Origin: a virus
Strand: one strand, 5' to 3'
Virus record (IMG/VR): IMGVR_UViG_3300045988_062157
Coordinates: 1 to 42,837 of that record
DNA: 42,837 nucleotides
Position 1 is the stretch's first letter. Every line of letters starts with the position of its first letter. The notes under the pieces are model-generated. The model saw only the letters and a list, made by a program, of their open reading frames with translations, did not search any database and was not told the DNA's origin. A program made the translations under genes and the position numbers. This document shows positions 4,441 through 40,090 of this stretch, piece after piece.

Positions 4441-5255
4441 AAGAACTGAAATGCGAGCTGTTCAACGACAATTTCCAGAATTACAAGCGGTACGGCATCC
4501 CGAAAGCGCAGCTTGTCATTGCGGATATTCCGTATAACATCGGCGCGGACGCTTACGGTAGCAATCCGATGTGGTATGTCGGCGGAGACAACAAGAACGG
4601 CGAGAGCAAGAAGGCAAAAAGCAGTTTCTTTCGGACAGACGGCTATTTCAAGATTGCGGAATACATGCACTTCTGCAATCGGCTTTTGAAGAAAGAACCG
4701 AAGGAAAAGAACGCTGCACCGGCGATGGTCGTATTTTGCGCGTTCGACCAGATGCAGACGGTGATGGAGTACGGTAAGCGATACGGGTTCAAGAACAGTT
4801 ATCCGCTGTTTTTCACGAAAAACTACTCGGCACAGGTACTTAAAGCCAACATGCGCATTGTAGGTGCAACAGAATTTGCGGTTGTACTGTATCGCGACAA
4901 GCTGCCGAAGTTTAACAACGGCAGGCAGTACGACAAGGACGGCAAGGTCATTCGCGGAAGCGGAAAGATGGTGTTTGACCATATCGACTGGGAGCGGGAC
5001 GGCAGAGAGATTCCCAAGCTGCACCCGACGCAGAAGCCGGTGAAGGTGCTGAAAAAGCTGATTGAGATTTTCACAGACCCGGGCGACACGGTAATTGACC
5101 CATGCGCCGGGAGCGGTTCGACGCTGAGAGCGGCGCGGGAACTGGGAAGAAACAGCTATGGGTTTGAACTGGATAAGCAGTTTTACCGGCTTGCCAAAGA
5201 TGAAATGCTGAAAGAACCGGAAACGGTGCAGATCAGGATGGAAGGTGTGGTGTGA
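4437..5255 (+). CDS. DNA methyltransferase, beta-class (N6-adenine or N4-cytosine)
   Basis: Motif IV variant ADIPYN near the N-terminus and SAM motif I DPCAGSGST near the C-terminus. This circular permutation is typical of N6_N4 methylases. Confidence 0.85.
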   Translation: MKELKCELFNDNFQNYKRYGIPKAQLVIADIPYNIGADAYGSNPMWYVGGDNKNGESKKAKSSFFRTDGYFKIAEYMHFCNRLLKKEPKEKNAAPAMVVFCAFDQMQTVMEYGKRYGFKNSYPLFFTKNYSAQVLKANMRIVGATEFAVVLYRDKLPKFNNGRQYDKDGKVIRGSGKMVFDHIDWERDGREIPKLHPTQKPVKVLKKLIEIFTDPGDTVIDPCAGSGSTLRAARELGRNSYGFELDKQFYRLAKDEMLKEPETVQIRMEGVV

Positions 5256-5403
5256 AACATGCAAAACCTGCAAGTGGTACGAGCCGTTTTGCGGAGTGTG
5301 CTGCAACGGCGACAGCGAACACCGGGCGGATTTCCGGTTGAAAGATGAGACGTGCGAGGAATGGGAGGAAAACGATGGCGGAGCGGCAAAAAAAAATACT
5401 TGA
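5245..5403 (+). CDS. possible Cys-rich mini-protein (52 aa)
   Basis: GTG 5245, translation VWCETCKTCKWYEPFCGVCCNGDSEHRADFRLKDETCEEWEEN.... Overlaps both neighbouring genes. Not in the track because it is under 60 aa. Confidence 0.35.
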   Translation: MWCETCKTCKWYEPFCGVCCNGDSEHRADFRLKDETCEEWEENDGGAAKKNT

Positions 5404-5881
5404 TGTTACTTGCGGATCTCGAACGATATGGTTTGACAAGCATCATCCTGCGGCGATTTATGCAGATAAGCGAGTTGAAGAATACTATGGCATTTGGAAG
5501 TCGGGAGAAGGGCAGTCTGTAAGATCTTGCATCATCGCCCCTGATATACAATGTGACTTTACGGATATCCCATTTGAGAACAACAGCTTTTCTCTCGTTG
5601 TTTGGGATCCGCCGCACTTGAAGAGCATTGGACGGAACTCATGGCTTGCTAAAAAGTATGGTCATCTTGATAACAACTGGCCGCAAATGTTACACGACGG
5701 ATACCGAGAATGTATGCGGGTGTTGAAACCGGATGGCGTATTGATCTTTAAGTGGTCAGAAACTCAGATCCCTGCCGATGAGGTTTGGAAAGCGATTGGC
5801 ACAAGACCGTTGTTCGGCCACCATAGCGGGAAAAAATCGCAGACCTTTTGGGGGTGCTTCATGAAATTGGAGGAGATGTAA
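5375..5881 (+). CDS. second SAM-dependent DNA methyltransferase (probable N6-adenine)
   Basis: GGGAGG then ATG 5375. Motif I ILDVTCGSR and motif IV VWDPPH. Visibly more AT-rich than its neighbours. Confidence 0.7.
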   Translation: MAERQKKILDVTCGSRTIWFDKHHPAAIYADKRVEEYYGIWKSGEGQSVRSCIIAPDIQCDFTDIPFENNSFSLVVWDPPHLKSIGRNSWLAKKYGHLDNNWPQMLHDGYRECMRVLKPDGVLIFKWSETQIPADEVWKAIGTRPLFGHHSGKKSQTFWGCFMKLEEM

Positions 5882-10251: not shown

Positions 10252-10405
10252 AAATCTGAAGCTGTGGGCGTGCCACTACGCATTAGTTAACCGGCATTCA
10301 AGGGGATGCGAGCCGGGCGAAGGGTGCACAAAAAGAACAGAAAGCTACCGCAGACGGATAGCTTTCAAACACGACGGAAGCACCGAGGAGATTACAAGTC
10401 GATGA
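10157..10405 (+). CDS. Cys-rich putative zinc-binding protein
   Basis: CRNCAYWRTLGN...WACHYALVNRHSRGCEPGEGC. ATGA coupling to the downstream late-regulator gene. Confidence 0.5.
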   Translation: MSSDTARKSGVTYYGDTPCRNCAYWRTLGNYKNLKLWACHYALVNRHSRGCEPGEGCTKRTESYRRRIAFKHDGSTEEITSR

Positions 10406-10815
10406 CAGCGAAAGAATGGCTGATGCGCGGGCGCGCACTGGAAAAGACGATTACAGCCTTGCAGGAGGCACGGAAACGCGCCTATGCACGGGCAACGGGC
10501 GCAACCGCGCCGGTAAGGGATACGCCGGGCGGAAAAGGGAGCACGGGGAACAAGGCGGACCCCTACATCGAACTGGGCGAGAAGATTGCAGCGAAGGAAA
10601 ACGAGCTTGCGGAGATATACGGCGAGATCGTGCGCGTGCTGGGCGAAATGCGGGATAACGAACTGCAAACGCTCCTGCTTGAACGTTACGTGAACGGCGC
10701 AACATGGGCACAGGCGGCGCGGCGGCTGCATTACAGCGAGGCGCACGTGAAAGGCTACATGCATAGAATGGCACTGAATGCTGTGGATAAGTTAATACCC
10801 CACAATACGCGATAA
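10402..10815 (+). CDS. late-gene transcriptional activator, sigma-70 region-4-like (ArpU/RinA/DUF1492 type)
   Basis: 137 aa. C-terminal ELQTLLLERYVNGATWAQAARRLHYSEAHVKGYMHRMALNAV is a region-4-like HTH. Its position just upstream of the packaging genes is typical. Confidence 0.55.
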   Translation: MTAKEWLMRGRALEKTITALQEARKRAYARATGATAPVRDTPGGKGSTGNKADPYIELGEKIAAKENELAEIYGEIVRVLGEMRDNELQTLLLERYVNGATWAQAARRLHYSEAHVKGYMHRMALNAVDKLIPHNTR

Positions 10816-10817
10816 CG

Positions 10818-10826
10818 TGATATACT
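10818..10826 (+). promoter_or_regulatory. candidate extended -10 element (TGaTATACT) in front of the structured region
   Basis: Sequence tgatatact read directly. No convincing -35, so this is weak. Confidence 0.25.
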
Positions 10827-11583
10827 GATATCGTGGAAGAGCTCCAAGGGAGCAAAACCACGGCATTCACGGGTTGATAAATTCCGGTTATGTCCTCCTA
10901 ATTCTCTCCCCCGCTTCGGCGGGGGACACGCTCCAAAGGCTGCACGAGGCCGGAGGGGCTCACACTTCCTTTCGCCCAAGGCATTCCCTAATGAGACGGG
11001 AAACCGTCTCAGCCTGTCCGCCGCGTCTGCACGAGGGCGCGCGGGCTCTTTGACCCTCGGGAATACAGTTCAAGGAAACGCGGCAGAGATGCCGCACATG
11101 CTCCAAAGCCTGCATGAGGGCGGCGGGGCAAAAAAGACAGCCGAACGGCTGCCCATAATCTGACAGCCCGGAAAGACGGGCGCGGGCGCAGCTTACGGAA
11201 CGGCGCGCCGACACCTATTCTGACGGCTCGGAAAGACGAGTACTGTTTGCGAACTTCGCCGGACTGCCCGGCAGGCCTTGCGCAGGGCCAAAGCGTCAGT
11301 ACACAGCGCAGCAGCACGTGTATCAGGGAGTAATTCCCTGCAACGGGGTAGCGCCCTGCGGTGAAAGTCCGCCGGTTTGCAGGCCGATAACTGCGCGCGA
11401 GGGGTTCAAAATTCGAACTTCCTATTTTGTAGCAGCCCCTGAGCGCAAGCCGGGAAACCGTCCGTAAAGCCGGACGCAAGGCGCAGCGATACGCGCACAT
11501 ACCGCGAAAGCGGTATACATGCAGCCGAAAGTTGATACGCGGTGCAATTCCGTGTGGCTGCACCTCCAATTGTCATAAGTAAA

Positions 11584-11619
11584 AGCACCTCCCCGGGATG
11601 GCTTCGGGTAGGTGCTTTT
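11584..11619. terminator. bidirectional intrinsic terminator
   Basis: Stem gcacct(c)cccg / cggg(t)aggtgc, flanked by AAAA upstream and TTTT downstream. Lies between the convergent ncRNA candidate and the minus-strand operon. Confidence 0.7.
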
Positions 11620-11647
11620 GCTTAGATGTTGCTTAGATGTTGCTTAG
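11620..11647. repeat. 11-bp tandem repeat gcttagatgtt x2.5
   Basis: Read directly. Overlaps the stop codon of the minus-strand mini-gene. Confidence 0.8.
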
Positions 11648-11805
11648 CGGTTATCATAAGCGCATAGAGCCTCACACAGCTCGCGCGTCGGGCACTGGGA
11701 GCAATCGCACTCCGATATGATAACGTTTTCGCACAGTGCGCGAGGATCGGCCATAAAAACGGCCTCGGCTGCTCGGTAGTCCTCAGGGGTAATGATGTTA
11801 TACAT
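11644..11805 (-). CDS. Cys-rich mini-protein (53 aa)
   Basis: Translation MYNIITPEDYRAAEAVFMADPRALCENVIISECDCSQCPTRELCEALCAYDNR. GGAGG 8 nt upstream. Follows the 88-aa gene after 3 nt. Confidence 0.55.
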   Translation of the reverse strand: MYNIITPEDYRAAEAVFMADPRALCENVIISECDCSQCPTRELCEALCAYDNR

Positions 11806-11808
11806 GGG

Positions 11809-12075
11809 TTACGCCTCCAGCCGGTAGGTGATCGCGCTGTTAAGCAGTGCGAAAGTGATGCACTCGTAAAACTCGTCGCGGGCGATTCCCTCCGGCGTGC
11901 CGGTGCCCTGCTCGATCACATGGGCAACAGTGGCGACAGCCTCAGCGGTCGGCTCGTGGGAAGATACCCAGTCGAGCATATGTCCGTACTCGTCGCACGT
12001 CATGGACGTGCAGAAGTCGTTTTTGATACATACCTTGCGGACGCTGTACGCGCTCCAGTTTGCCTTGATGGTCAT
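11809..12075 (-). CDS. hypothetical protein (88 aa)
   Basis: Track ORF. Codon usage and spacing are consistent with a three-gene minus-strand operon. Confidence 0.6.
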   Translation of the reverse strand: MTIKANWSAYSVRKVCIKNDFCTSMTCDEYGHMLDWVSSHEPTAEAVATVAHVIEQGTGTPEGIARDEFYECITFALLNSAITYRLEA

Positions 12076-12126
12076 TTTATATCTTTCTTTCTGCGGGGTT
12101 ATACCGCCCCGCCCGGTGTAGGTGGC

Positions 12127-12672
12127 TCAGTCAATAGCGCAGTAGGTAAGGGCATCATAGCCCATATCAGCAAGCGCCTTGGTCATGGCCTCGGCTGCGG
12201 TCTCGCGCTTGTACGCCTGACCGGCGATGCGGAAGCGGATGACCCAGCGGCGGCCAAAGCTCTTCCACTCAAAGCAGCCGCATCCGGCCTCCTTGCAAGC
12301 CTGCTTGACCTTGGCGGACTGCCAGCGCGGGAGCGAGATTGATGGCGCGTCGAAATTACAGGTGCCGCCGTCATCAACCTGTGCAGCTGCGGCTTTGCCG
12401 ATCTCGTACACCTTGCGCAGATCGTCGCGGAGCTTGGCATACTTGCCGGTAAGCGGCTTCGGCGCTTCGGGCTTTTTGTCTGCGGGATAAGCTGCAAGGA
12501 TGACCTCAAAGTCGCGGAGTGCGTCCGCCTCGGTGCTTGCCGTGCGGTAGGTGATCTCCTGGCCGTCGGGATACATGAGCATAGTTTCGTAACGGTTCGC
12601 GGCAAGCTCGCAGGTGTCGAGGATGACGCGGCGGCCGTTGCGGGTGTACTCGGTGCGTTTGATGGTGCTCAT
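12127..12672 (-). CDS. hypothetical protein (181 aa)
   Basis: GGAGG precedes the ATG at 12672 (internal Met of track ORF 12127..12687). No family recognised. Confidence 0.6.
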   Translation of the reverse strand: MSTIKRTEYTRNGRRVILDTCELAANRYETMLMYPDGQEITYRTASTEADALRDFEVILAAYPADKKPEAPKPLTGKYAKLRDDLRKVYEIGKAAAAQVDDGGTCNFDAPSISLPRWQSAKVKQACKEAGCGCFEWKSFGRRWVIRFRIAGQAYKRETAAEAMTKALADMGYDALTYCAID

Positions 12673-12737
12673 GATTTGTACCTCCATTTTGTTTTCGGTG
12701 TTTGGTGTTTTCCTTTGTTGTGATTATAGTATATATC

Positions 12738-12818
12738 ATTGAGCAATGATAAACAATGGGCAAAGTAAACATAATTGAGTAATGATATTTGGCAGAATTG
12801 TATAATTGAGCAATGATA
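12738..12818. promoter_or_regulatory. three copies of operator-like 14-mer ATTGAG(C/T)AATGATA in a divergent promoter region
   Basis: Copies at 12738-12751, 12774-12787 and 12805-12818. The first is embedded in the palindrome TCATTGAGCAATGA. TGTATAAT (extended -10, + strand) at 12799-12806. TATAAT on the minus strand at 12723-12728. Confidence 0.6.
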
Positions 12819-12853
12819 GCGGCTGTGGTACACTATAACAGGGAGGTGATACC

Positions 12854-13036
12854 ATGGCAGTTGACCCAAACGCACGCACGCGGGCGAGTAATAAGTATAA
12901 CGCGAAAGCATACGATCGGCTTAACATCGTAGTACCCAAGGGAGAGCGCGAACGCATTAAGGAGTATGCAGCCAGCAAGGGCGAGAGCCTGAACAGCTAT
13001 GTATATAAGCTGATAACGGCAGACATGGACAAGTAA
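12854..13036 (+). CDS. ribbon-helix-helix (Arc/CopG-like) DNA-binding protein
   Basis: NKYNAKAYDRLNIVVPKGERERIKEYAASKGESLNSYVYKLI is the familiar RHH pattern. GGGAGG RBS. Confidence 0.7.
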   Translation: MAVDPNARTRASNKYNAKAYDRLNIVVPKGERERIKEYAASKGESLNSYVYKLITADMDK

Positions 13037-13053
13037 CATATTGTAGGCAGACA

Positions 13054-13087
13054 AAAGCCGCTCCAAGTAACCGGGGCGGCTTTTTTG
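13054..13087 (+). terminator. intrinsic terminator after the RHH gene
   Basis: Stem aaagccgc / gcggcttt followed by a T-run. Confidence 0.6.
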
Positions 13088-13115: not shown

Positions 13116-13499
13116 ATGGACAAGCTGACCGCAAAACAGCGGGCATGGATTGATTACTATAAGCAGGGCAAGACAGCAGCAGAGGCGGCACGGCTTGCCG
13201 GTTACAGGGGCAATAACTCCGACGCGATAGGTTCGCAGAACTTGGTTAAACTTGGTAAATACGTTGCAGACCGCGACGAGCTGTTAGATCGTGCCCGTGT
13301 GGCGGATATGGCGGAGATTAACGAGTTTTGGAGCGATATCATGAGGGATAACACGGCGGACATAAAGGACCGTCTGAAAGCCTCTGAGCTGCGCGCACGG
13401 AGTATCGGCGCGTTTATCGAGCGTCGGGAAATCGTAGGAGCGCAGACGATCACGGTTAAGCTGCTCGATGATGACGAGGAAATGAAAGATACAGAGTAA
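13116..13499 (+). CDS. terS: terminase small subunit-like protein (P27-type)
   Basis: MDKLTAKQRAWIDYYKQGKTAAEAARLAGY... HTH N-terminus and ...DRLKASELRARS, typical of P27-family small terminases. Confidence 0.6.
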   Translation: MDKLTAKQRAWIDYYKQGKTAAEAARLAGYRGNNSDAIGSQNLVKLGKYVADRDELLDRARVADMAEINEFWSDIMRDNTADIKDRLKASELRARSIGAFIERREIVGAQTITVKLLDDDEEMKDTE

Positions 13500-25901: not shown

Positions 25902-28040
25902 ATGGGAACAAACAAAATCATTTACCTGGACAAAGAATTTTCGGCGACAGACGTTACATCGGGGAACTTGTATCAAGCGCGTTCCCCGATTGCTGCGTCG
26001 CAGGAAATTGATACTTTTAGTTTCGATGTAGACAGTGAAGACACCACATTAACCGAATTTATCCGCAACACACCATTGACGTATTTCCATAATGATGAAC
26101 AAATGGGAATCTACTATGTGCAGAAGGTCAGTCGAACGGCTATCAACACCTATCATTTCGCCTGCACTTCGACCGTCGGTCTGCTTGACGAGACCTACCA
26201 TGACGGCGGCATTTACACAGGTGAAACCGTAAAAGAGGTTTGCGAGGACATTTGCAGTCCGCTGACGGTTTACGTCAAAACGAACTTGCAGAACATCAAG
26301 CTCTACGGTTGGCTTCCTATCGCAACACGGCGCGAAAACCTCACGCAGGTGCTTTTTGCGATTGGTGCAACGTTCAAGGTTGACTTTGACGGTGCAATTC
26401 GCATTGAAGGTCTGTGGAGCGGCGAGGCAAGCGCAATCGACGCAGGCGAAATCTACGCAAGCGGTACGGTTGATTACGCAACTCCTGTTACCGAGGTAAT
26501 CGTAACCGAACACGCCTATTCGCAGAGCGCAACGGAAACGACAGAGCTTTTCAAGGGAACAACGTCGGCAGGCGACAAAATCACCTTCGACGAACCGTGC
26601 TATGACCTCGCGGCATCTGGCTTTTCCATTCTTGCAAGCGGCGCAAACTGGGCAACGGTTTCGGCAGGTTCGGGCGTGCTGACGGGCAAGAAGTATACGC
26701 ACGTCACCCGACAGGTAATGCAGCAGATTAAACCGAAAACACGCGAACTCGTTACGCAGTCCGACAATACGGTTAAGGTAGAGAACGCAACGCTCGTATC
26801 TCTCGTAAATGCAACGGCAGTCGCAGAACGCCTTGCCGAGTATTACAGCCACAACGAACGTATCAATTACAAAATCGCAACCAAACGCGAAATTCCCGGC
26901 GATGTAGTGAAAATTGCGCATCCTTACGGCGGTACAGTCTCCGGCTGCATTGAAAGCGCGGATATTACGGTATCCGGCAAACTTGCGGCAGAGGAAAGCG
27001 TACTGATTGATTATTTCCCGCCGGACATTGGCGAGCAGGAATATTACGATACGGTCGAAGTTCTGACCAAAGACGGAACATGGACTGTGCCGGAGAATGT
27101 GACCTCGGTGCGAATTGTGCTGATTGGGGGAGGGTCTGGCGGTTCAAGTGGATGCGAGGGCGAAGATGGCAAGAGCGTGTACAGCGGCGGCGCAGGCGGC
27201 AAAGGCGGCATAGCGGGCGTAGGTGGCGCGGGCGGAAAGGTTTACAGCGTTGAAATGGATGTTACGCCCGGAACGAATTACGCAGTGCAAATTGGTGCAG
27301 GCGGCAAAGGTGGCGTATATTCCGCAGACGGCAGCGTAGCCGGTACGTCTGGCGTGCAAACAAAGTTCGGCTCGCTATCCTCTGAAAACGGCTCATCTTC
27401 CGATATTGGTTTTGCAGACCCAGTCAATAACCAGTTTTACGCCCAAGCCGGAGACGATGGCATTAAGGGCGGAGATGGAGGCAACGGCGGCGAAGCAAAC
27501 TATACAAGCGATGATAGCAAGGTTCGCGCAGGCAAAGACGGAGGAAACGCCCTCGGCTACGCAGGCGGCAAGGGTGCAAGCGGTAGCGCGGCTAAATACG
27601 ACGGTCAGATTGGCGTTTCTGGCGGTGGCGGTGGCGGCGGCGCCGCTATGGGCAATGCGGGAGGAGATGGCAATACCGGACGCTTGGAATGGACGAATTT
27701 CTCCCTTCCCGAGCATACCGGTCAAGGATGGCTCGCAAAAGGCGGCGCAGGCGGCTCTGGCGGTAACGCAACTATCATTCCGAACACGCCTACCATGCTC
27801 GGCAGTGGCGGCGGTGGCGGTCACGGAGGCGGCGGCGGTGGAGGCGGCGGATTGACGCAAGCTGTGTCCACGTGGAGCCATTCCGGCGGCAGCGGTGGTT
27901 CCGGCTCTTCCGGCGGCGACGGTGCACCCGGCTGCGTGCTCATCTATTACCGTGTATACCGTGCAAGCTCTTCCGGACGGTTTGTCACTCGTGACGGCAA
28001 AGGCTTTAATGAGAAATTCACAAGAAAGGTTGTGGTTTAA
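25902..28040 (+). CDS. tail/baseplate protein with C-terminal glycine-rich domain
   Basis: 712 aa. The C-terminal roughly 300 aa are dominated by GG(A/S/N)GG runs (GGGSGGSSG, GGDGGNGG, GGGGGGG). Confidence 0.6.
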   Translation: MGTNKIIYLDKEFSATDVTSGNLYQARSPIAASQEIDTFSFDVDSEDTTLTEFIRNTPLTYFHNDEQMGIYYVQKVSRTAINTYHFACTSTVGLLDETYHDGGIYTGETVKEVCEDICSPLTVYVKTNLQNIKLYGWLPIATRRENLTQVLFAIGATFKVDFDGAIRIEGLWSGEASAIDAGEIYASGTVDYATPVTEVIVTEHAYSQSATETTELFKGTTSAGDKITFDEPCYDLAASGFSILASGANWATVSAGSGVLTGKKYTHVTRQVMQQIKPKTRELVTQSDNTVKVENATLVSLVNATAVAERLAEYYSHNERINYKIATKREIPGDVVKIAHPYGGTVSGCIESADITVSGKLAAEESVLIDYFPPDIGEQEYYDTVEVLTKDGTWTVPENVTSVRIVLIGGGSGGSSGCEGEDGKSVYSGGAGGKGGIAGVGGAGGKVYSVEMDVTPGTNYAVQIGAGGKGGVYSADGSVAGTSGVQTKFGSLSSENGSSSDIGFADPVNNQFYAQAGDDGIKGGDGGNGGEANYTSDDSKVRAGKDGGNALGYAGGKGASGSAAKYDGQIGVSGGGGGGGAAMGNAGGDGNTGRLEWTNFSLPEHTGQGWLAKGGAGGSGGNATIIPNTPTMLGSGGGGGHGGGGGGGGGLTQAVSTWSHSGGSGGSGSSGGDGAPGCVLIYYRVYRASSSGRFVTRDGKGFNEKFTRKVVV

Positions 28041-29065
28041 TGCCTGATACTTATATATCACAGTTTAGCGGCGAAGAAATTGACTCTGCGCTGAGAGCTG
28101 CACAGATTATCTCCGGTGCAGATACGCCTGCTGAACTGCGAGAAAAGCTCGAAATTCGAGGCGATACCATTCCGGTTAGCGCGACAGACCCCACACCTGT
28201 TTCCGAAGCACTGACAGCATCCGGTGGCGGCGTCAACCCCAATTTGTTGGATAACTGGTACTTCGGTAACCCGGTGAACCAGAGGGGGAAGACGGAGTAT
28301 TCGGTTAACGGATATACGATTGATAGGTGGAAATTTAATAATAACAGCGGCGATATAGTTATAGATGATACCGGAATTATGTTTATCGGAAAACAAAACT
28401 ATGCCGAGTTTGAACAACGATATGAATTTCCTAAAGATATCAGTGGAAAGCAAATTACGATAAGTATCCTTGCCGACAGTTTTAGTGGCGAAGGAGATTT
28501 TTCTCTTGTTATTCAAAATCAAACAAATTATCGAACTTTTCTTCTTTCTGCTGGCTTAAATTCATTCACATTAAATTTTTTTGATGAGTCGTCTGTGTTT
28601 CGTTATTTTATCCAAAGTCAAAACGTCAACGAAACAAATCCCCCAAAAATGCACCTCCTCGCCGCCAAGCTCGAACTCGGCTCCACCCAGACCCTTGCAC
28701 ACAAAGAGGGTGACAAGTGGGTGCTGAATGAAATCCCTGATTTCGGGGAGCAGCTGAGGAGATGTCAAATGTATTATCTCGGCGATACTCAGAGGGACGG
28801 ATATGGAAAATCTACAAGTAACAACGAAATATACGTTGTTGTTCCGTTGCCTGCAACGATGCGTGCTAAACCTGTAATCGCATCATCTTCAAAATGGGGA
28901 AACCTTATTTCTGGCGATGGAGAAATAACTGGCATTTCTTCGATTGAGGTTGCTGCGTTAATGGACAATTTAGTGATTCTGAGGGTTGTAACCAACTCAA
29001 CTATTAGCACAAACAAGGCGTTTATAATGACTGATACCCGATTCGCCCTTTCCGCCGACCTATAA
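28040..29065 (+). CDS. tail fibre/receptor-binding protein (mosaic composition)
   Basis: LLDNWYFGNPVNQRG and LAAKLELGSTQTLAHKEGDKWVLNEIPDFGEQLRRCQ motifs are common in Firmicutes prophage fibre proteins (from memory). AT-rich internal blocks. Confidence 0.55.
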   Translation: MPDTYISQFSGEEIDSALRAAQIISGADTPAELREKLEIRGDTIPVSATDPTPVSEALTASGGGVNPNLLDNWYFGNPVNQRGKTEYSVNGYTIDRWKFNNNSGDIVIDDTGIMFIGKQNYAEFEQRYEFPKDISGKQITISILADSFSGEGDFSLVIQNQTNYRTFLLSAGLNSFTLNFFDESSVFRYFIQSQNVNETNPPKMHLLAAKLELGSTQTLAHKEGDKWVLNEIPDFGEQLRRCQMYYLGDTQRDGYGKSTSNNEIYVVVPLPATMRAKPVIASSSKWGNLISGDGEITGISSIEVAALMDNLVILRVVTNSTISTNKAFIMTDTRFALSADL

Positions 29066-37871: not shown

Positions 37872-38957
37872 TCACTTCCACGGCAGAATAAACGGTTTTA
37901 TAATCCGTCCTCCGTGGTAGTTTGGTTCCGGGTCTATTGGTTCTTCAATCGCTATTGTAGTATCTGGAATCGTAAAACCGAGACCGCTTAGTTCCTCTAC
38001 CAGCTTTTGATATTTGGCGGAGTTCTGATTTTTTATACGAGTGAATCCGCTGAGAGATTTAGGACATAGGTCAGGAAGAAGATACCTTACACGGTAATAT
38101 ATACTGTGGTTTAACCTACGCTCTTTGTCGTGACGAATCCTGCGCTGCAATTCGTTGTATACTTCGATCTCGTCTTCGTCTCGATCATCAACAAACGGCC
38201 TCCAGCTTGTGTGAAGCATAGGCTGTTCTTCGCCTTTATAATAAATCCTATCTTGGTTTCTGTCGTCGAAAAAGACTATAGGGAATCGAACGAACGCGCC
38301 GTCTGGCTCTACATATCCGGTCTTTAGAATGAATTTCGGGAGTTTAGGAAAACGCCTATCATTTCCGTGCATGGTATACACACGCCCTTGATATTTGGCA
38401 GACACTGCACTTCTTCCGTTTTCCCATGGAATCAAAACAAGATCTGTGCCCATGGCCAGACAGTTGATTTTTACCTCATTGTAGATGCGGGTTCTGAGTG
38501 CAGCGCCAACCGAGATTTTATTTGAGTTTTCCTCGATTTTATGCTGCCACTCTAAGGCTTTGGAAAATCTTCCGATTTCCTCGTACCATTGCACGACGCG
38601 GTAGAAATCGTTTTCACTCCAACCGATGGGCGATTCAAACATGATTTCGGTTGCTTTCTCTATACATGCAAGTGCTAAGTCATACTTTTCAATTTTCCAC
38701 AGTCTGCTTGCATGCATCCTTAGAACATATTCCAACGAACCGGTGACACCTAAACCATCGTGCACCGATATTGAATTGTCAAAAGCAGGAACCGGAATAG
38801 ATTCAATGGACGAAACAGATGTTAAATCATGCGCTTCACCATCTACGGATATTCTTTCTGCATCGTAGATAATATCTCGATTGTCATAAAGAGCACCAGC
38901 AGGTTTTGGAAAGATGGATGATATACGTCCATTGTAAAAGTAAACCTCGTAACTCAT
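37872..38957 (-). CDS. orphan 361-aa protein (AT-rich moron, same strand as the repressor)
   Basis: Long clean ORF in a segment clearly more AT-rich than the rest of the genome. No family recognised. Confidence 0.75.
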   Translation of the reverse strand: MSYEVYFYNGRISSIFPKPAGALYDNRDIIYDAERISVDGEAHDLTSVSSIESIPVPAFDNSISVHDGLGVTGSLEYVLRMHASRLWKIEKYDLALACIEKATEIMFESPIGWSENDFYRVVQWYEEIGRFSKALEWQHKIEENSNKISVGAALRTRIYNEVKINCLAMGTDLVLIPWENGRSAVSAKYQGRVYTMHGNDRRFPKLPKFILKTGYVEPDGAFVRFPIVFFDDRNQDRIYYKGEEQPMLHTSWRPFVDDRDEDEIEVYNELQRRIRHDKERRLNHSIYYRVRYLLPDLCPKSLSGFTRIKNQNSAKYQKLVEELSGLGFTIPDTTIAIEEPIDPEPNYHGGRIIKPFILPWK

Positions 38958-38979
38958 TTTGACACTCTCCCGTGTTGCA

Positions 38980-39001
38980 TAAGTCCTGTTTATTGGACTT
39001 T
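38980..39001. repeat. 22-bp direct repeat copy 2
   Basis: Identical 22-mer taagtcctgtttattggacttt. Confidence 0.9.
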
Positions 39002-39028
39002 ACTTGTGATTAGAAAACTCGCACTTGT

Positions 39029-39046
39029 ATCGAACAATTGTTCGAT
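39029..39046. promoter_or_regulatory. perfect 18-bp palindrome atcgaacaattgttcgat upstream of the orphan gene
   Basis: Read directly. Operator-like. Confidence 0.5.
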
Positions 39047-39212
39047 ATATAATATTGTCATAACTTGACGGACGGTTTTGCTTGATATTGCCTTATATTG
39101 GTAATACCATAGTATCAAGAAAGGCAGGGAACAAAACATGGAAAATAATAAATATCCAAACTATGAGGCATTCGCCGCCTATCTCAATACATTTGAAGAA
39201 CCGGAAAAGATT

Positions 39213-39611
39213 TTATCCGGTCTGGTGGCGCTCTTGAAACCAAGTGGAAACTGCGTTGGCGATCGATCGGAGAAAGATTAAGTCCTCGTTAGACAAATCT
39301 TCGCCAGCAGGCATAATTCCTGCTGACACAAACACATCCATAATATGTTTTGCATTTATCTCTCTCGCTTTGGCTTCGGCCGGAGCGGGAGATTTTTTTA
39401 TTTCTGGATTTTCGAACTTCTCCAGATCGTCAACAGTGAATCCGAGTGCATGAACAATGGTTTTCAAAGTCCCGTATTGTGGGTCTTTGGTTTGTCCAGC
39501 GAAGATTTTATTGAGCGTTCCTTTAGGTATTCCGCACTCATCGCTGATCTGTTGCAGTGTTTTACCACTTTTTTGCTTCATTATATCCAGTGCGTCTACC
39601 AGCATTTTCAT
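39213..39611 (-). CDS. CI-like repressor (XRE-family HTH)
   Basis: KSGKTLQQISDECGIPKGTLNKIFAGQTKDP HTH. Divergent from the Cro-like gene. True start may be the second ATG, at 39605. Confidence 0.8.
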   Translation of the reverse strand: MKMLVDALDIMKQKSGKTLQQISDECGIPKGTLNKIFAGQTKDPQYGTLKTIVHALGFTVDDLEKFENPEIKKSPAPAEAKAREINAKHIMDVFVSAGIMPAGEDLSNEDLIFLRSIANAVSTWFQERHQTG

Positions 39612-39630
39612 TCCTCCTTTCTATGACTTC

Positions 39631-39659
39631 ATTATATAACTATACGCATGCAGTGTCAA
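39631..39659 (-). promoter_or_regulatory. repressor promoter: TTGACA-17 nt-TATAAT on the minus strand
   Basis: Plus-strand attata at 39631-39636 and tgtcaa at 39654-39659. Confidence 0.7.
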
Positions 39660-39667
39660 TAAAGAAA

Positions 39668-39758
39668 TTACCGAATTAGGTAAAAATATTTCCGATGCAC
39701 CATTGACAATTACCGTATTCGGTGATATTATAATAACATAGATTACCGAATATGGTAA
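39668..39758. promoter_or_regulatory. three 16-bp operators, consensus TTACCGAATATGGTAA
   Basis: ttaccgaattaggtaa 39668-39683, ttaccgtattcggtga 39710-39725, ttaccgaatatggtaa 39743-39758. Each has inverted TTACC/GGTAA half-sites. Confidence 0.75.
39703..39731 (+). promoter_or_regulatory. early rightward promoter: TTGACA-17 nt-TATTAT
   Basis: ttgaca 39703-39708, tattat 39726-39731. The middle operator fills the spacer. Confidence 0.7.
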
Positions 39759-39772
39759 CAGGAGGTGATTGT

Positions 39773-39982
39773 ATGAGATTCATTGAAAAAGAAATGCCGC
39801 GATTCAACGTGACCTACTATGATATTCAGCAGGTTATGAATTGCAGCGAAAAGACGGTACGAAACAAGATGCAAGGCATCACGGATTTTACTTACAGCGA
39901 AGCCCGTGTTATCCGAGACAAACTGTTCCCCGGTATGAATATCGAGTATCTGTTTGACCGCCATGACAACGAAAGCGCATAA
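39773..39982 (+). CDS. Cro-like early regulator (69 aa)
   Basis: GGAGGTG precedes ATG 39773. YDIQQVMNCSEKTVRNKMQG is HTH-like. First gene of the rightward operon. Confidence 0.6.
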   Translation: MRFIEKEMPRFNVTYYDIQQVMNCSEKTVRNKMQGITDFTYSEARVIRDKLFPGMNIEYLFDRHDNESA

Positions 39983-39997
39983 GCGGAGGTGAGAGCA

Positions 39998-40090
39998 ATG
40001 GATCCGGTACTGATGACGCTTAACATCGCAACAATGGTTATTCTGGCTGTGCTGGTTGTGCTGATGCGCAAGTGGTACAAGCGGAGGTGA
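39998..40090 (+). CDS. 30-aa single-TM peptide
   Basis: GGAGGTG RBS. Translation MDPVLMTLNIATMVILAVLVVLMRKWYKRR. Confidence 0.45.
   Translation: MDPVLMTLNIATMVILAVLVVLMRKWYKRR

Follow-up and report, generated by a model that had tools for sequence, protein, structure and literature searches.

What kind of element occupies the gap of ~810 nucleotides (nt), poor in open reading frames (ORFs), that lies between a late-regulator-like gene and the DNA-packaging genes of the virus record IMGVR_UViG_3300045988_062157 (42,837 nt, analyzed here at full length and referred to as the window)? Positions 10927–11241 of this gap carry two families of repeated hairpins, from which the initial annotation had concluded that RNA structure, not protein coding, is under selection there, and that the repeated loops could be multivalent binding sites. 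We find that this segment is the repeat-bearing portion of a predicted non-coding RNA of ~790 nt, read from the + strand from ~10827 to a terminator at 11576–11624. The hairpins are better described as three copies of a putative family-wide docking hairpin within an expanded late-leader RNA.

The first family, here called module 1, comprises three hairpins with the loop UGCAYGAG. Their cores are read from the sequence at 10938–10951 (GGC-TGCACGAG-GCC), 11025–11038 (GTC-TGCACGAG-GGC) and 11108–11121 (GCC-TGCATGAG-GGC), and in all three the stem varies while pairing is kept; a repeat search placed the three-copy family at 10940–61, 11027–48 and 11110–31. The 5' string aYgctccaaag, common to copies 1 and 3, lies inside a 34-nt repeat (10926–10959 and 11096–11129, 85% identity). 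The three hairpins had been described as 3-base-pair (bp) stems closing the loop; their presence stands, but not their extent, as each proves to be a two-tier hairpin located after a capping hairpin and a linker. The full unit consists of a small capping hairpin (hairpin A, with a UUCG, GAAA or GAGA loop), a linker of 4–5 nt, and the two-tier hairpin (hairpin B).

In copies 1 and 3, the outer stem GCUCC/GGGGC (4–5 bp) is followed by a 3x3 internal loop AAA/GGN and the inner 3-bp stem, copy 1 (10930–10959, loop at 10941–10948) being GCUCC-AAA-GGC-UGCACGAG-GCC-GGA-GGGGC, and copy 3 (11100–11129, loop at 11111–11118) being GCUCC-AAA-GCC-UGCAUGAG-GGC-GGC-GGGGC. The architecture of copy 2 (11016–11046, loop at 11028–11035) is unlike that of the other two, namely, GUCC-GC-CGCGUC-UGCACGAG-GGCGCG-C-GGGC. 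The capping hairpins A1 (10907–10926, UUCG), A2 (10992–11011, GAAA) and A3 (11080–11095, GAGA), which, like the modules, are all on the + strand, appear in the predicted folds; in relatives, one pair of A1 is either C-G or U-G, and A2 shows a compensatory change from A-U to G-C. The three units fold as drawn on the + strand, with energies of −32.7 (A1 with copy 1), −34.4 (A2 with copy 2) and −27.4 kcal/mol (z from −3.3 to −4.4), and more weakly on the − strand (z from −0.7 to −2.2). Over distinct copies from all lineages, the linker consensus is RAYAY, mostly GAUAU. On its own, the 8-mer TGCAYGAG shows no enrichment over the window (seven matches vs 4.0 expected); the distinctive feature is the occurrence of three stem-closed copies on one strand within 180 nt.

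The second family, module 2, is formed by two GAAAGA hairpins on the + strand, 60 nt apart start-to-start as initially noted: TCTGACAG (UCUGACA) followed by GCCCG-GAAAGA-CGGGC at 11159–11181, and TCTGACGG (UCUGACG) followed by GCUCG-GAAAGA-CGAGU at 11219–11241. Both are seen by repeat search (a 23-nt repeat, 11156–78 and 11216–38), alignment and folding, and the stem variants in relatives are GCCCG/CGGGC, GCUCG/CGAGC, GCGUG/CACGC and GCCUG/CGGGC.

In order to see whether these features extend beyond the paralogous copies of one sequence, we compared them with those of related phages (designated by L numbers below). Close relatives, 23 near-identical phages, were obtained by scanning viral contigs with the regulator protein, and distant ones by pattern scans and by a scan with the regulator alignment. 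In an alignment of 26 distinct copies of module 1, 89.9% of cells are paired, compared to 42–53% when the 3' partners are slid, and 24 cells are double-changed, compared to 6.4 in shuffles. A larger alignment of 56 distinct copies, which is model-fitted and hence biased towards structure, yields 90.8% paired cells (36–53% slid) and 61 double changes (18.4 in shuffles); for module 2, the respective values are 96% (23–40%) and six (1.0). The loop is kept and the stems covary in other phage lineages. In the 56 copies, the loop positions are U, G, C, A (54) or G (2), U (44) or C (12), G, A, G, that is, six out of eight are invariant, and the pair closing the loop is C-G in 56 out of 56. The outer stems are wholly different between lineages (CACCC/GGGUG, GGUGC/GCACC, GUCCC/GGGGC, GCCCG/CGGGU, GCCU/AGGU), and the inner stem is GUC/GAC in L233.

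Covariance models gave congruent results. The first model, built partly from the window copies, matches only the three module sites on both strands of the 42.8 kb, namely, copy 3 (54.8 bits), copy 1 (47.8 bits) and copy 2 (36.6 bits), the next best match having 12.6 bits; with this model, true modules score at least about 30 bits, and chance carriers of the exact 15-mer, at most 25 bits. For the second model, 14 copies were used, all of them from other lineages and none from that of the window; it independently recovers copy 3 at 47.9 bits (E 5e-12) and copy 1 at 37.9 bits (E 5e-9), scoring the variant copy 2 at only 13.1 bits and the best match outside the RNA region at 12 bits.

The strand and the non-coding nature of the element follow from the same data. 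In the 56 distinct copies, 44 G·U vs six A·C pairs are seen on the + strand, hence the RNA is read from the + strand, and a minus-strand RNA is ruled out by this asymmetry and by the fold energies of the units. The gap as a whole folds well below shuffles on both strands (z = −5.7 on the + strand and −5.4 on the other). Stop-free frames shift in strand, frame and length among the 23 relatives at 92–98% identity, 1- and 2-nt indels occur in the gap among close relatives, and the ORFs of the gap have no Pfam or PHROG match. Taken together, the covariation, the non-conserved frames and the prevalence of G·U over A·C uphold the initial conclusion on selection for RNA structure and widen it beyond paralogues.

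Several more specific structural readings were tried and rejected. A hammerhead-like reading of CUG(C)AUGAG is ruled out, the motif being a closed terminal loop with covarying flanks, and so is a kink-turn reading of the internal loop, which is a 3x3 loop lacking tandem G·A beside a 3-nt bulge. A linker–loop pseudoknot was dismissed, as the linker Y and the loop Y do not covary consistently (e.g., L004 has ACAC with UGCAUGAG). The long-range helix 10969–10989/11348–11370 proposed by RNAalifold is not kept in the diverged 3' domain of the L005 type, and, for a conserved small minus-strand ORF behind the CCUCC stretch, the start codon is missing in the window and the Shine–Dalgarno sequence, in L227. 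The modules do not behave as intrinsic terminators either, being followed by A-rich or mixed sequence, and none was called on the + strand. A CRISPR array or solitary unit (near-identical repeats of 28–37 nt, unique spacers of 30–40 nt) does not fit copies that are 77–85% identical and 83–87 nt apart, with "spacers" conserved among relatives.

The remaining parts of the predicted RNA are as follows. Right after the stop codon of the regulator gene, an extended −10-like element, TGaTATACT (10818–10826, + strand, read from the sequence), marks the putative RNA start; it was not called by the sigma-70 consensus scan because it has no −35 match. Its position is taken by TGcTATTAT in L024, L227 and L233, and by TACAAT in L241, L243 and L006. 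It is followed by GAUAU and the 5' hairpin P1 (10827–10862, + strand), CGUGG-AAGA-GCUCC-AAG-GGAGC-AAAA-CCACG, whose outer stem is UUGAG/CUCAA in L024, L241 and L243. The P1 region (10827–10867) has a module-like outline, in which GAUAU precedes an outer stem of 5 bp, an internal loop rich in A, and an inner hairpin, as reflected by a weak match of the second model (14.3 bits). Before hairpin A, the pyrimidine-rich, anti-Shine–Dalgarno-like stretch CCUCCUAAUUCUC (10894–10906, + strand) is conserved in position, the counterpart in L024 (~2480–2495) and L045/L241 (L241 ~705–720) being CCUCCUUUCUA, which resembles the 3' end of 16S rRNA. In the minimum-energy fold of L227, the pyrimidine-rich stretch pairs with the purine-rich ribosome-binding region of terS, the gene of the terminase small subunit, which suggests possible translational masking of terS in this phage.

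The 3' domain (11242–11575, + strand) contains further hairpins, including AUACCGCGAAAGCGGUAU, and conservation of its blocks, interrupted by mosaic replacements, is seen in L001, L005, L019 and L271; the GAAA hairpin shows a G-C to C-G swap. Just after the conserved GAAA-capped hairpin, CAUGCA (11517–11522) is complementary to loop positions 1–6 of UGCAUGAG, but its pairing with a module loop may be due to chance, as the motif is nearly self-complementary. The RNA would end at 11576–11624, at a strong hairpin that has a U-tract on both strands and is predicted to be a bidirectional terminator (an inverted repeat with 20-nt arms, 90% complementary, supported by folding). Three head-to-tail copies of TTGCTTAGATG, the third being TTGCTTAGCGG, stand straight after this terminator, at 11618–11652; among relatives, some have repeats here and others, unrelated sequence after GCTTAG. 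This 11-nt array (11618–11647) is the only one reported by Tandem Repeats Finder, so a ToxI-like type III antitoxin RNA, with tandem repeats of ~34–36 nt, was rejected.

In the close relatives, the RNA is conserved yet modular. Many of them have a fourth module just after copy 3, with the outer stem GCUCG/UGAGC, GCUCG/CGGGC or GCUCG/CGAGC; L005, L013 and L020 carry the GAAAGA hairpin in three copies, and their central part is replaced. Among homologous RNAs between the regulator gene and terS, the module copy number ranges from one to five, and the RNA length, from ~230 to ~1150 nt. The minimal form of ~230 nt, which abuts terS, is found in L227 and L233. There, the regulator stop codon is followed by TGcTATTAT-GATATTG, P1, the pyrimidine-rich stretch and hairpin A, and then by AUAU and a single module; next come ACCUCCAUU, a terminator-like hairpin some 30 nt ahead of the terS start codon, the ribosome-binding site, and terS itself, confirmed as PHROG 606. 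L024 has one module in about 290 nt, and L243, one module with the loop UGCGUGAG, followed by a tRNA; two modules are present in L045, L241, L292 and L052. In L271 and L326, five modules at distances of 92–112 nt lie in an RNA of ~1150 nt, in which P1, the pyrimidine-rich stretch, the GAAAGA hairpin, the 3' blocks and the terminator are as in the window. In every leader-type homologue (the window, L024, L227/L233, L241/L045, L243, L271), a module follows the promoter-like element at ~100 nt and precedes a terminator-like hairpin, and regulator homologues (26–42% identity) are encoded directly upstream of the RNA in L024, L045/L241, L243, L227 and L233.

Single modules occur in other settings as well: behind a structural gene, in a spacer of the late operon, in group B (including L168, a Clostridia metagenome-assembled genome (MAG)), before the scaffold gene in L084, and, in the L087 type, before a small gene followed by terminase. 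In group B, L308 (~5243–5290, − strand) and L291 (~5040–5082) have the capping hairpin swapped for AT-rich DNA resembling a promoter, which stops precisely at UAUAUG in front of the module, indicating a mosaic junction at the edge of the module element. In L052, a 79-aa ORF (597–833) lies between two modules (105–144 and 854–893) that are adjacent in L045 and L241; flanking an inserted gene, the modules resemble cassette boundaries. The genome scan produced one true match, a Clostridia MAG; in the 15-mer scan of viral contigs, chance matches in coding DNA (at most 25 bits) prevailed, and the matches of the scan with CTGGGAGGGATATGCC mostly came from one unrelated conserved gene. We regard the module as a family-wide element of gut, probably Clostridia, phages; we infer the host from the single MAG match, which represents a different lineage of the element, and from the gut origin of most contigs.

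The RNA and its hairpin are absent from every library searched (Rfam 15, Pfam, PHROG, INPHARED). Rfam 15 has no match at the gathering score over the whole window and none at E ≤ 10 over 10600–11900, and a blastn search of the INPHARED phage genomes gave no match. GOLLD (RF01998) and ROOL (RF03087) have no match at E ≤ 1 in L024, L045, L052, L271, L282 and L292 as well. Matches to two orphan motifs were obtained in the place of hairpin A, namely, DUF3800-VIII RNA in L045 (11744–11809, − strand, 48.6 bits) and L292 (334–398, 56.4 bits), and skipping-rope RNA together with its terminator in L084 (3198–3297, 52.7 bits). They adjoin the module and do not overlap it, and the window matches neither; the module resembles these motifs in its niche but has a different structure, outside both models. 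Skipping-rope (RF02924) and DUF3800-VIII (RF03075) come from Firmicute phage-like DNA, are followed by a terminator, and have no known function (PMC5737381); no later functional work on either was found in the literature. DUF3800 proteins have been described as RNase H-like and tied to mobile elements and defence (PMC13594972), and no DUF3800 gene was found adjoining the window RNA. The placement of the two motifs suggests that several unexplained phage RNAs have the module as their common neighbour on the 3' side. Moreover, tRNA genes lie in or just after homologous RNAs, before the terminator preceding terS, in L052 (1247–1317), L243 (2062–2135) and L241 (~1295–1370); no tRNA or tmRNA was found in the window. 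In L052, a GP20-b RNA (RF03003, 60.5 bits) is present in the structural-gene region (5711–5771).

The genome is that of a temperate siphovirus-like phage, encoding an integrase, a DnaD-like loader, a methyltransferase, portal, major head and tape measure proteins, and both terminase subunits (terS, terL). Directly 5' of the RNA, the late-regulator-like gene (10306–10815, + strand, 169 aa) has a match to PHROG 36, "transcriptional regulator" (E 3.9e-15), and weak ones to sigma-70 region 4; a comparison of the protein with solved structures gave nothing useful. Downstream, the first late gene is terS (13116–13499, + strand; Pfam Terminase_2, E 1.6e-10), just 5' of which the terminator scan called an intrinsic terminator (13053–13084, + strand), with an equivalent hairpin before terS in L045, L052 and L241. 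Between the RNA terminator and terS lie ~1.3–1.4 kb of small minus-strand ORFs. This block (11644–12911) is convergent on the bidirectional terminator and has no Pfam match, one ORF belonging to PHROG 23592 (unknown function), and a sigma-70-like promoter match occurs within it at 12860–12832 (− strand). The G+C content falls to 0.43 at 28001–29000 and to 0.40–0.43 at 38001–40000, compared to ~0.53 elsewhere, which suggests acquired segments.

What could such a hairpin do? That the loop is invariant while the stems drift freely points to recognition by a partner, and a conserved loop with replaceable stems is the pattern of recognition loops such as lambda boxB. We consider it likely that the module loop binds a factor, and the idea of multivalent binding sites gains weight from the copy number of one to five and the invariance of six out of eight loop positions. 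According to our preferred explanation, to which we assign a probability of roughly one in three, each hairpin would serve one loop-specific factor (a protein of the phage or the host, or possibly RNA polymerase) as a docking site. Loaded on the nascent late transcript, this factor would enable transcription to proceed through the intrinsic terminators located between the RNA and terS, that is, processive antitermination of the nut/put kind, with additional module copies raising the chance of loading. Terminator read-through as the outcome is itself a tentative and rather doubtful step. It is consistent with the location of leader-type RNAs between the promoter-like element and the terminator-like hairpins before terS, and with their linkage to the regulator gene. 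In a phage-like late cluster, a leader with GC-rich direct repeats bearing inverted repeats is bypassed by dedicated antitermination (PMC11150451).

The lambda nut (boxB bound by N) and HK022 put sites are similar in being a small hairpin or a pair of hairpins on a nascent phage transcript, with a conserved loop and a variable stem, located after a promoter (a promoter-like element in the leader-type homologues of the module) and before intrinsic terminators gating downstream genes, and present in more than one copy per phage. There is no sequence similarity, the module having an 8-nt loop (UGCRYGAG) on a two-tier stem instead of a GNRA-like pentaloop and up to five tandem copies, in a host that is presumably a Gram-positive anaerobe and not an enterobacterium.

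Other observations weigh against antitermination. No boxA-like linear element was seen and no N-like protein was identified (N-like genes were not systematically searched), which also sets the RNA apart from nut and put. The promoter is a sequence resemblance only, and one hairpin should suffice for antitermination in cis, which leaves the arrays of three to five modules and the conserved 3' domain of ~500 nt unexplained. In L084 and the L087 type, the modules stand after a terminator-like hairpin, near the ribosome-binding site of the next gene, with no terminator after them, and group B modules are not placed between a promoter and a terminator either. The terminator scan did not call the hairpin of L227, where, moreover, a sigma-70-like match (CAGACA-18-TAAAAT) between the module and terS indicates that terS may have its own promoter. 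Finally, the module is present at only four out of 44 distant regulator loci, and no regulator homologue was found in the available parts of the group B, L084 and L087 contigs.

An alternative that we regard as unlikely is that the modules punctuate the transcript for processing and stability. The combination of hairpin A, G|AUAU and hairpin B would form an RNase Y-type endonuclease site, hairpin A shielding the upstream 3' end and hairpin B guiding the cut and protecting the new 5' end, and the array would be cut into pieces of ~85–110 nt. RNase Y prefers cutting after G in A/U-rich single strands, and its sae site in S. aureus needs a hairpin a few nucleotides downstream. Here, the single-stranded RAYAY linker is conserved between two stable hairpins, the primary 5' end has the same layout of GAUAU and P1 (a weak match of the module model), and single modules stand 27–45 nt before late-gene start codons (the scaffold gene of L084, a group B gene of unknown function, L087). 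Whole RNAs replace hairpin A (DUF3800-VIII in L045 and L292, skipping-rope with its terminator in L084), and tRNAs share the transcripts, which fits a transcript needing to be cut into parts. The T7 RNase III and RNase Y intergenic hairpins are likewise repeated and conserved, and located in late-operon spacers beside a single-stranded linker. However, RNase III sites have a duplex of about 20 bp and no specific loop, whereas the module stems are of 8–9 bp and the loop is invariant, and a hairpin whose role was generic, as a 5' stabiliser or guide, would not require an invariant loop of 8 nt. In addition, the linkers of window copies 1 and 2 (ACAC, AGCCU) are not AU-rich, the window hairpins A are trivial tetraloop hairpins of no obvious use once released, and no nuclease gene is consistently nearby.

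A further reading, which we hold to be improbable, is a stand-alone trans-acting large RNA, either a multivalent sponge for a loop-binding protein (as CsrB is for CsrA) that would also bind the single hairpins of late mRNAs, or a self-associating scaffold like ROOL and GOLLD. The unit from the promoter-like element to the strong terminator is discrete, with opposite-strand genes between it and terS; the whole region folds at z = −5.7, the copy number varies from one to five with a large conserved 3' domain, and loop–loop contacts are conceivable, as UGCA and UGCG are self-complementary and one loop-complementary CAUGCA exists at 11517–11522. The position in a prophage late region with adjacent tRNAs (L052, L241, L243) is as reported for ROOL and GOLLD (PMC12286853). 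Like the RNA studied here, the latter are structured, non-coding and large (0.6–0.8 kb and more), have no known function, and are encoded by phages or prophages, frequently next to tRNAs (present in the three homologues just named and absent from the window); GOLLD, again like this RNA, has a variable and a conserved half. ROOL and GOLLD form an RNA-only homo-oligomeric cage. The window RNA matches neither Rfam model, not even with the threshold relaxed to E ≤ 10, and is built of one tandemly repeated hairpin, shrinking to about 230 nt in some phages, where the one-module homologues look like ordinary leaders abutting terS. CsrB and RsmZ share with it many short conserved loop motifs on stem-variable hairpins and a copy number that differs between relatives, but the module loop is UGC[A/G][U/C]GAG in 56 out of 56 copies, not ANGGA, and the RNA is a phage-encoded late leader without a known partner; the GGA motif bound by CsrA/RsmA is seen only in module 2, whose GAAAGA loop is preceded by G. 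The sites complementary to the loop are not enriched in the window. A DNA-level element is very improbable: TGCAYGAG could be a −35-like box for the sigma-region-4-like regulator, a terminase small-subunit site near cos/pac or a recombination hotspot, with the inverted repeats incidental or forming cruciforms. It would lie beside a gene for a DNA-binding-type regulator and upstream of terS, mosaic junctions and gains or losses of units coincide with modules, and a promoter-like match in L227 overlaps the 3' strand of the module. Yet duplex recognition does not select for complementarity between freely changing flanks, the strand-specific G·U pairs (44 vs six A·C) speak against a DNA site, and no −10-like element is found at a fixed distance past the loop across lineages. 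Chance similarity or coding sequence, e.g., the 186-aa ORF on the − strand (11009–11569), draws on long stop-free frames on both strands of a GC-rich stretch; given no Pfam or PHROG match, frames not conserved in near-identical relatives and E values of 5e-9 to 5e-12 for the second model, this reading is hardly credible, and computation, within its limits, excludes it.

ROOL/GOLLD-type phage RNAs are among the least understood, and another family, abundant in human-gut phage contigs, is a useful addition, the more so as its repeated building block is unusually simple. It is a long shot, but these RNAs may represent a new modular class of large phage non-coding RNAs, from ~230 to ~1150 nt, grown by tandem amplification and acting in trans as a scaffold, sponge or particle in late infection, with the hairpin as a shared "handle" that would tie skipping-rope, DUF3800-VIII and tRNAs into one RNA system. 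For skipping-rope and DUF3800-VIII, adjacency to the module also provides a first clue from context. With its invariant loop, the hairpin could be used directly as bait in a partner search (the designed loop-mutant counterpart of UGCAUGAG is UCGUACAG), and the natural range of one to five copies, together with the minimal form abutting terS, makes a role in late expression directly testable.

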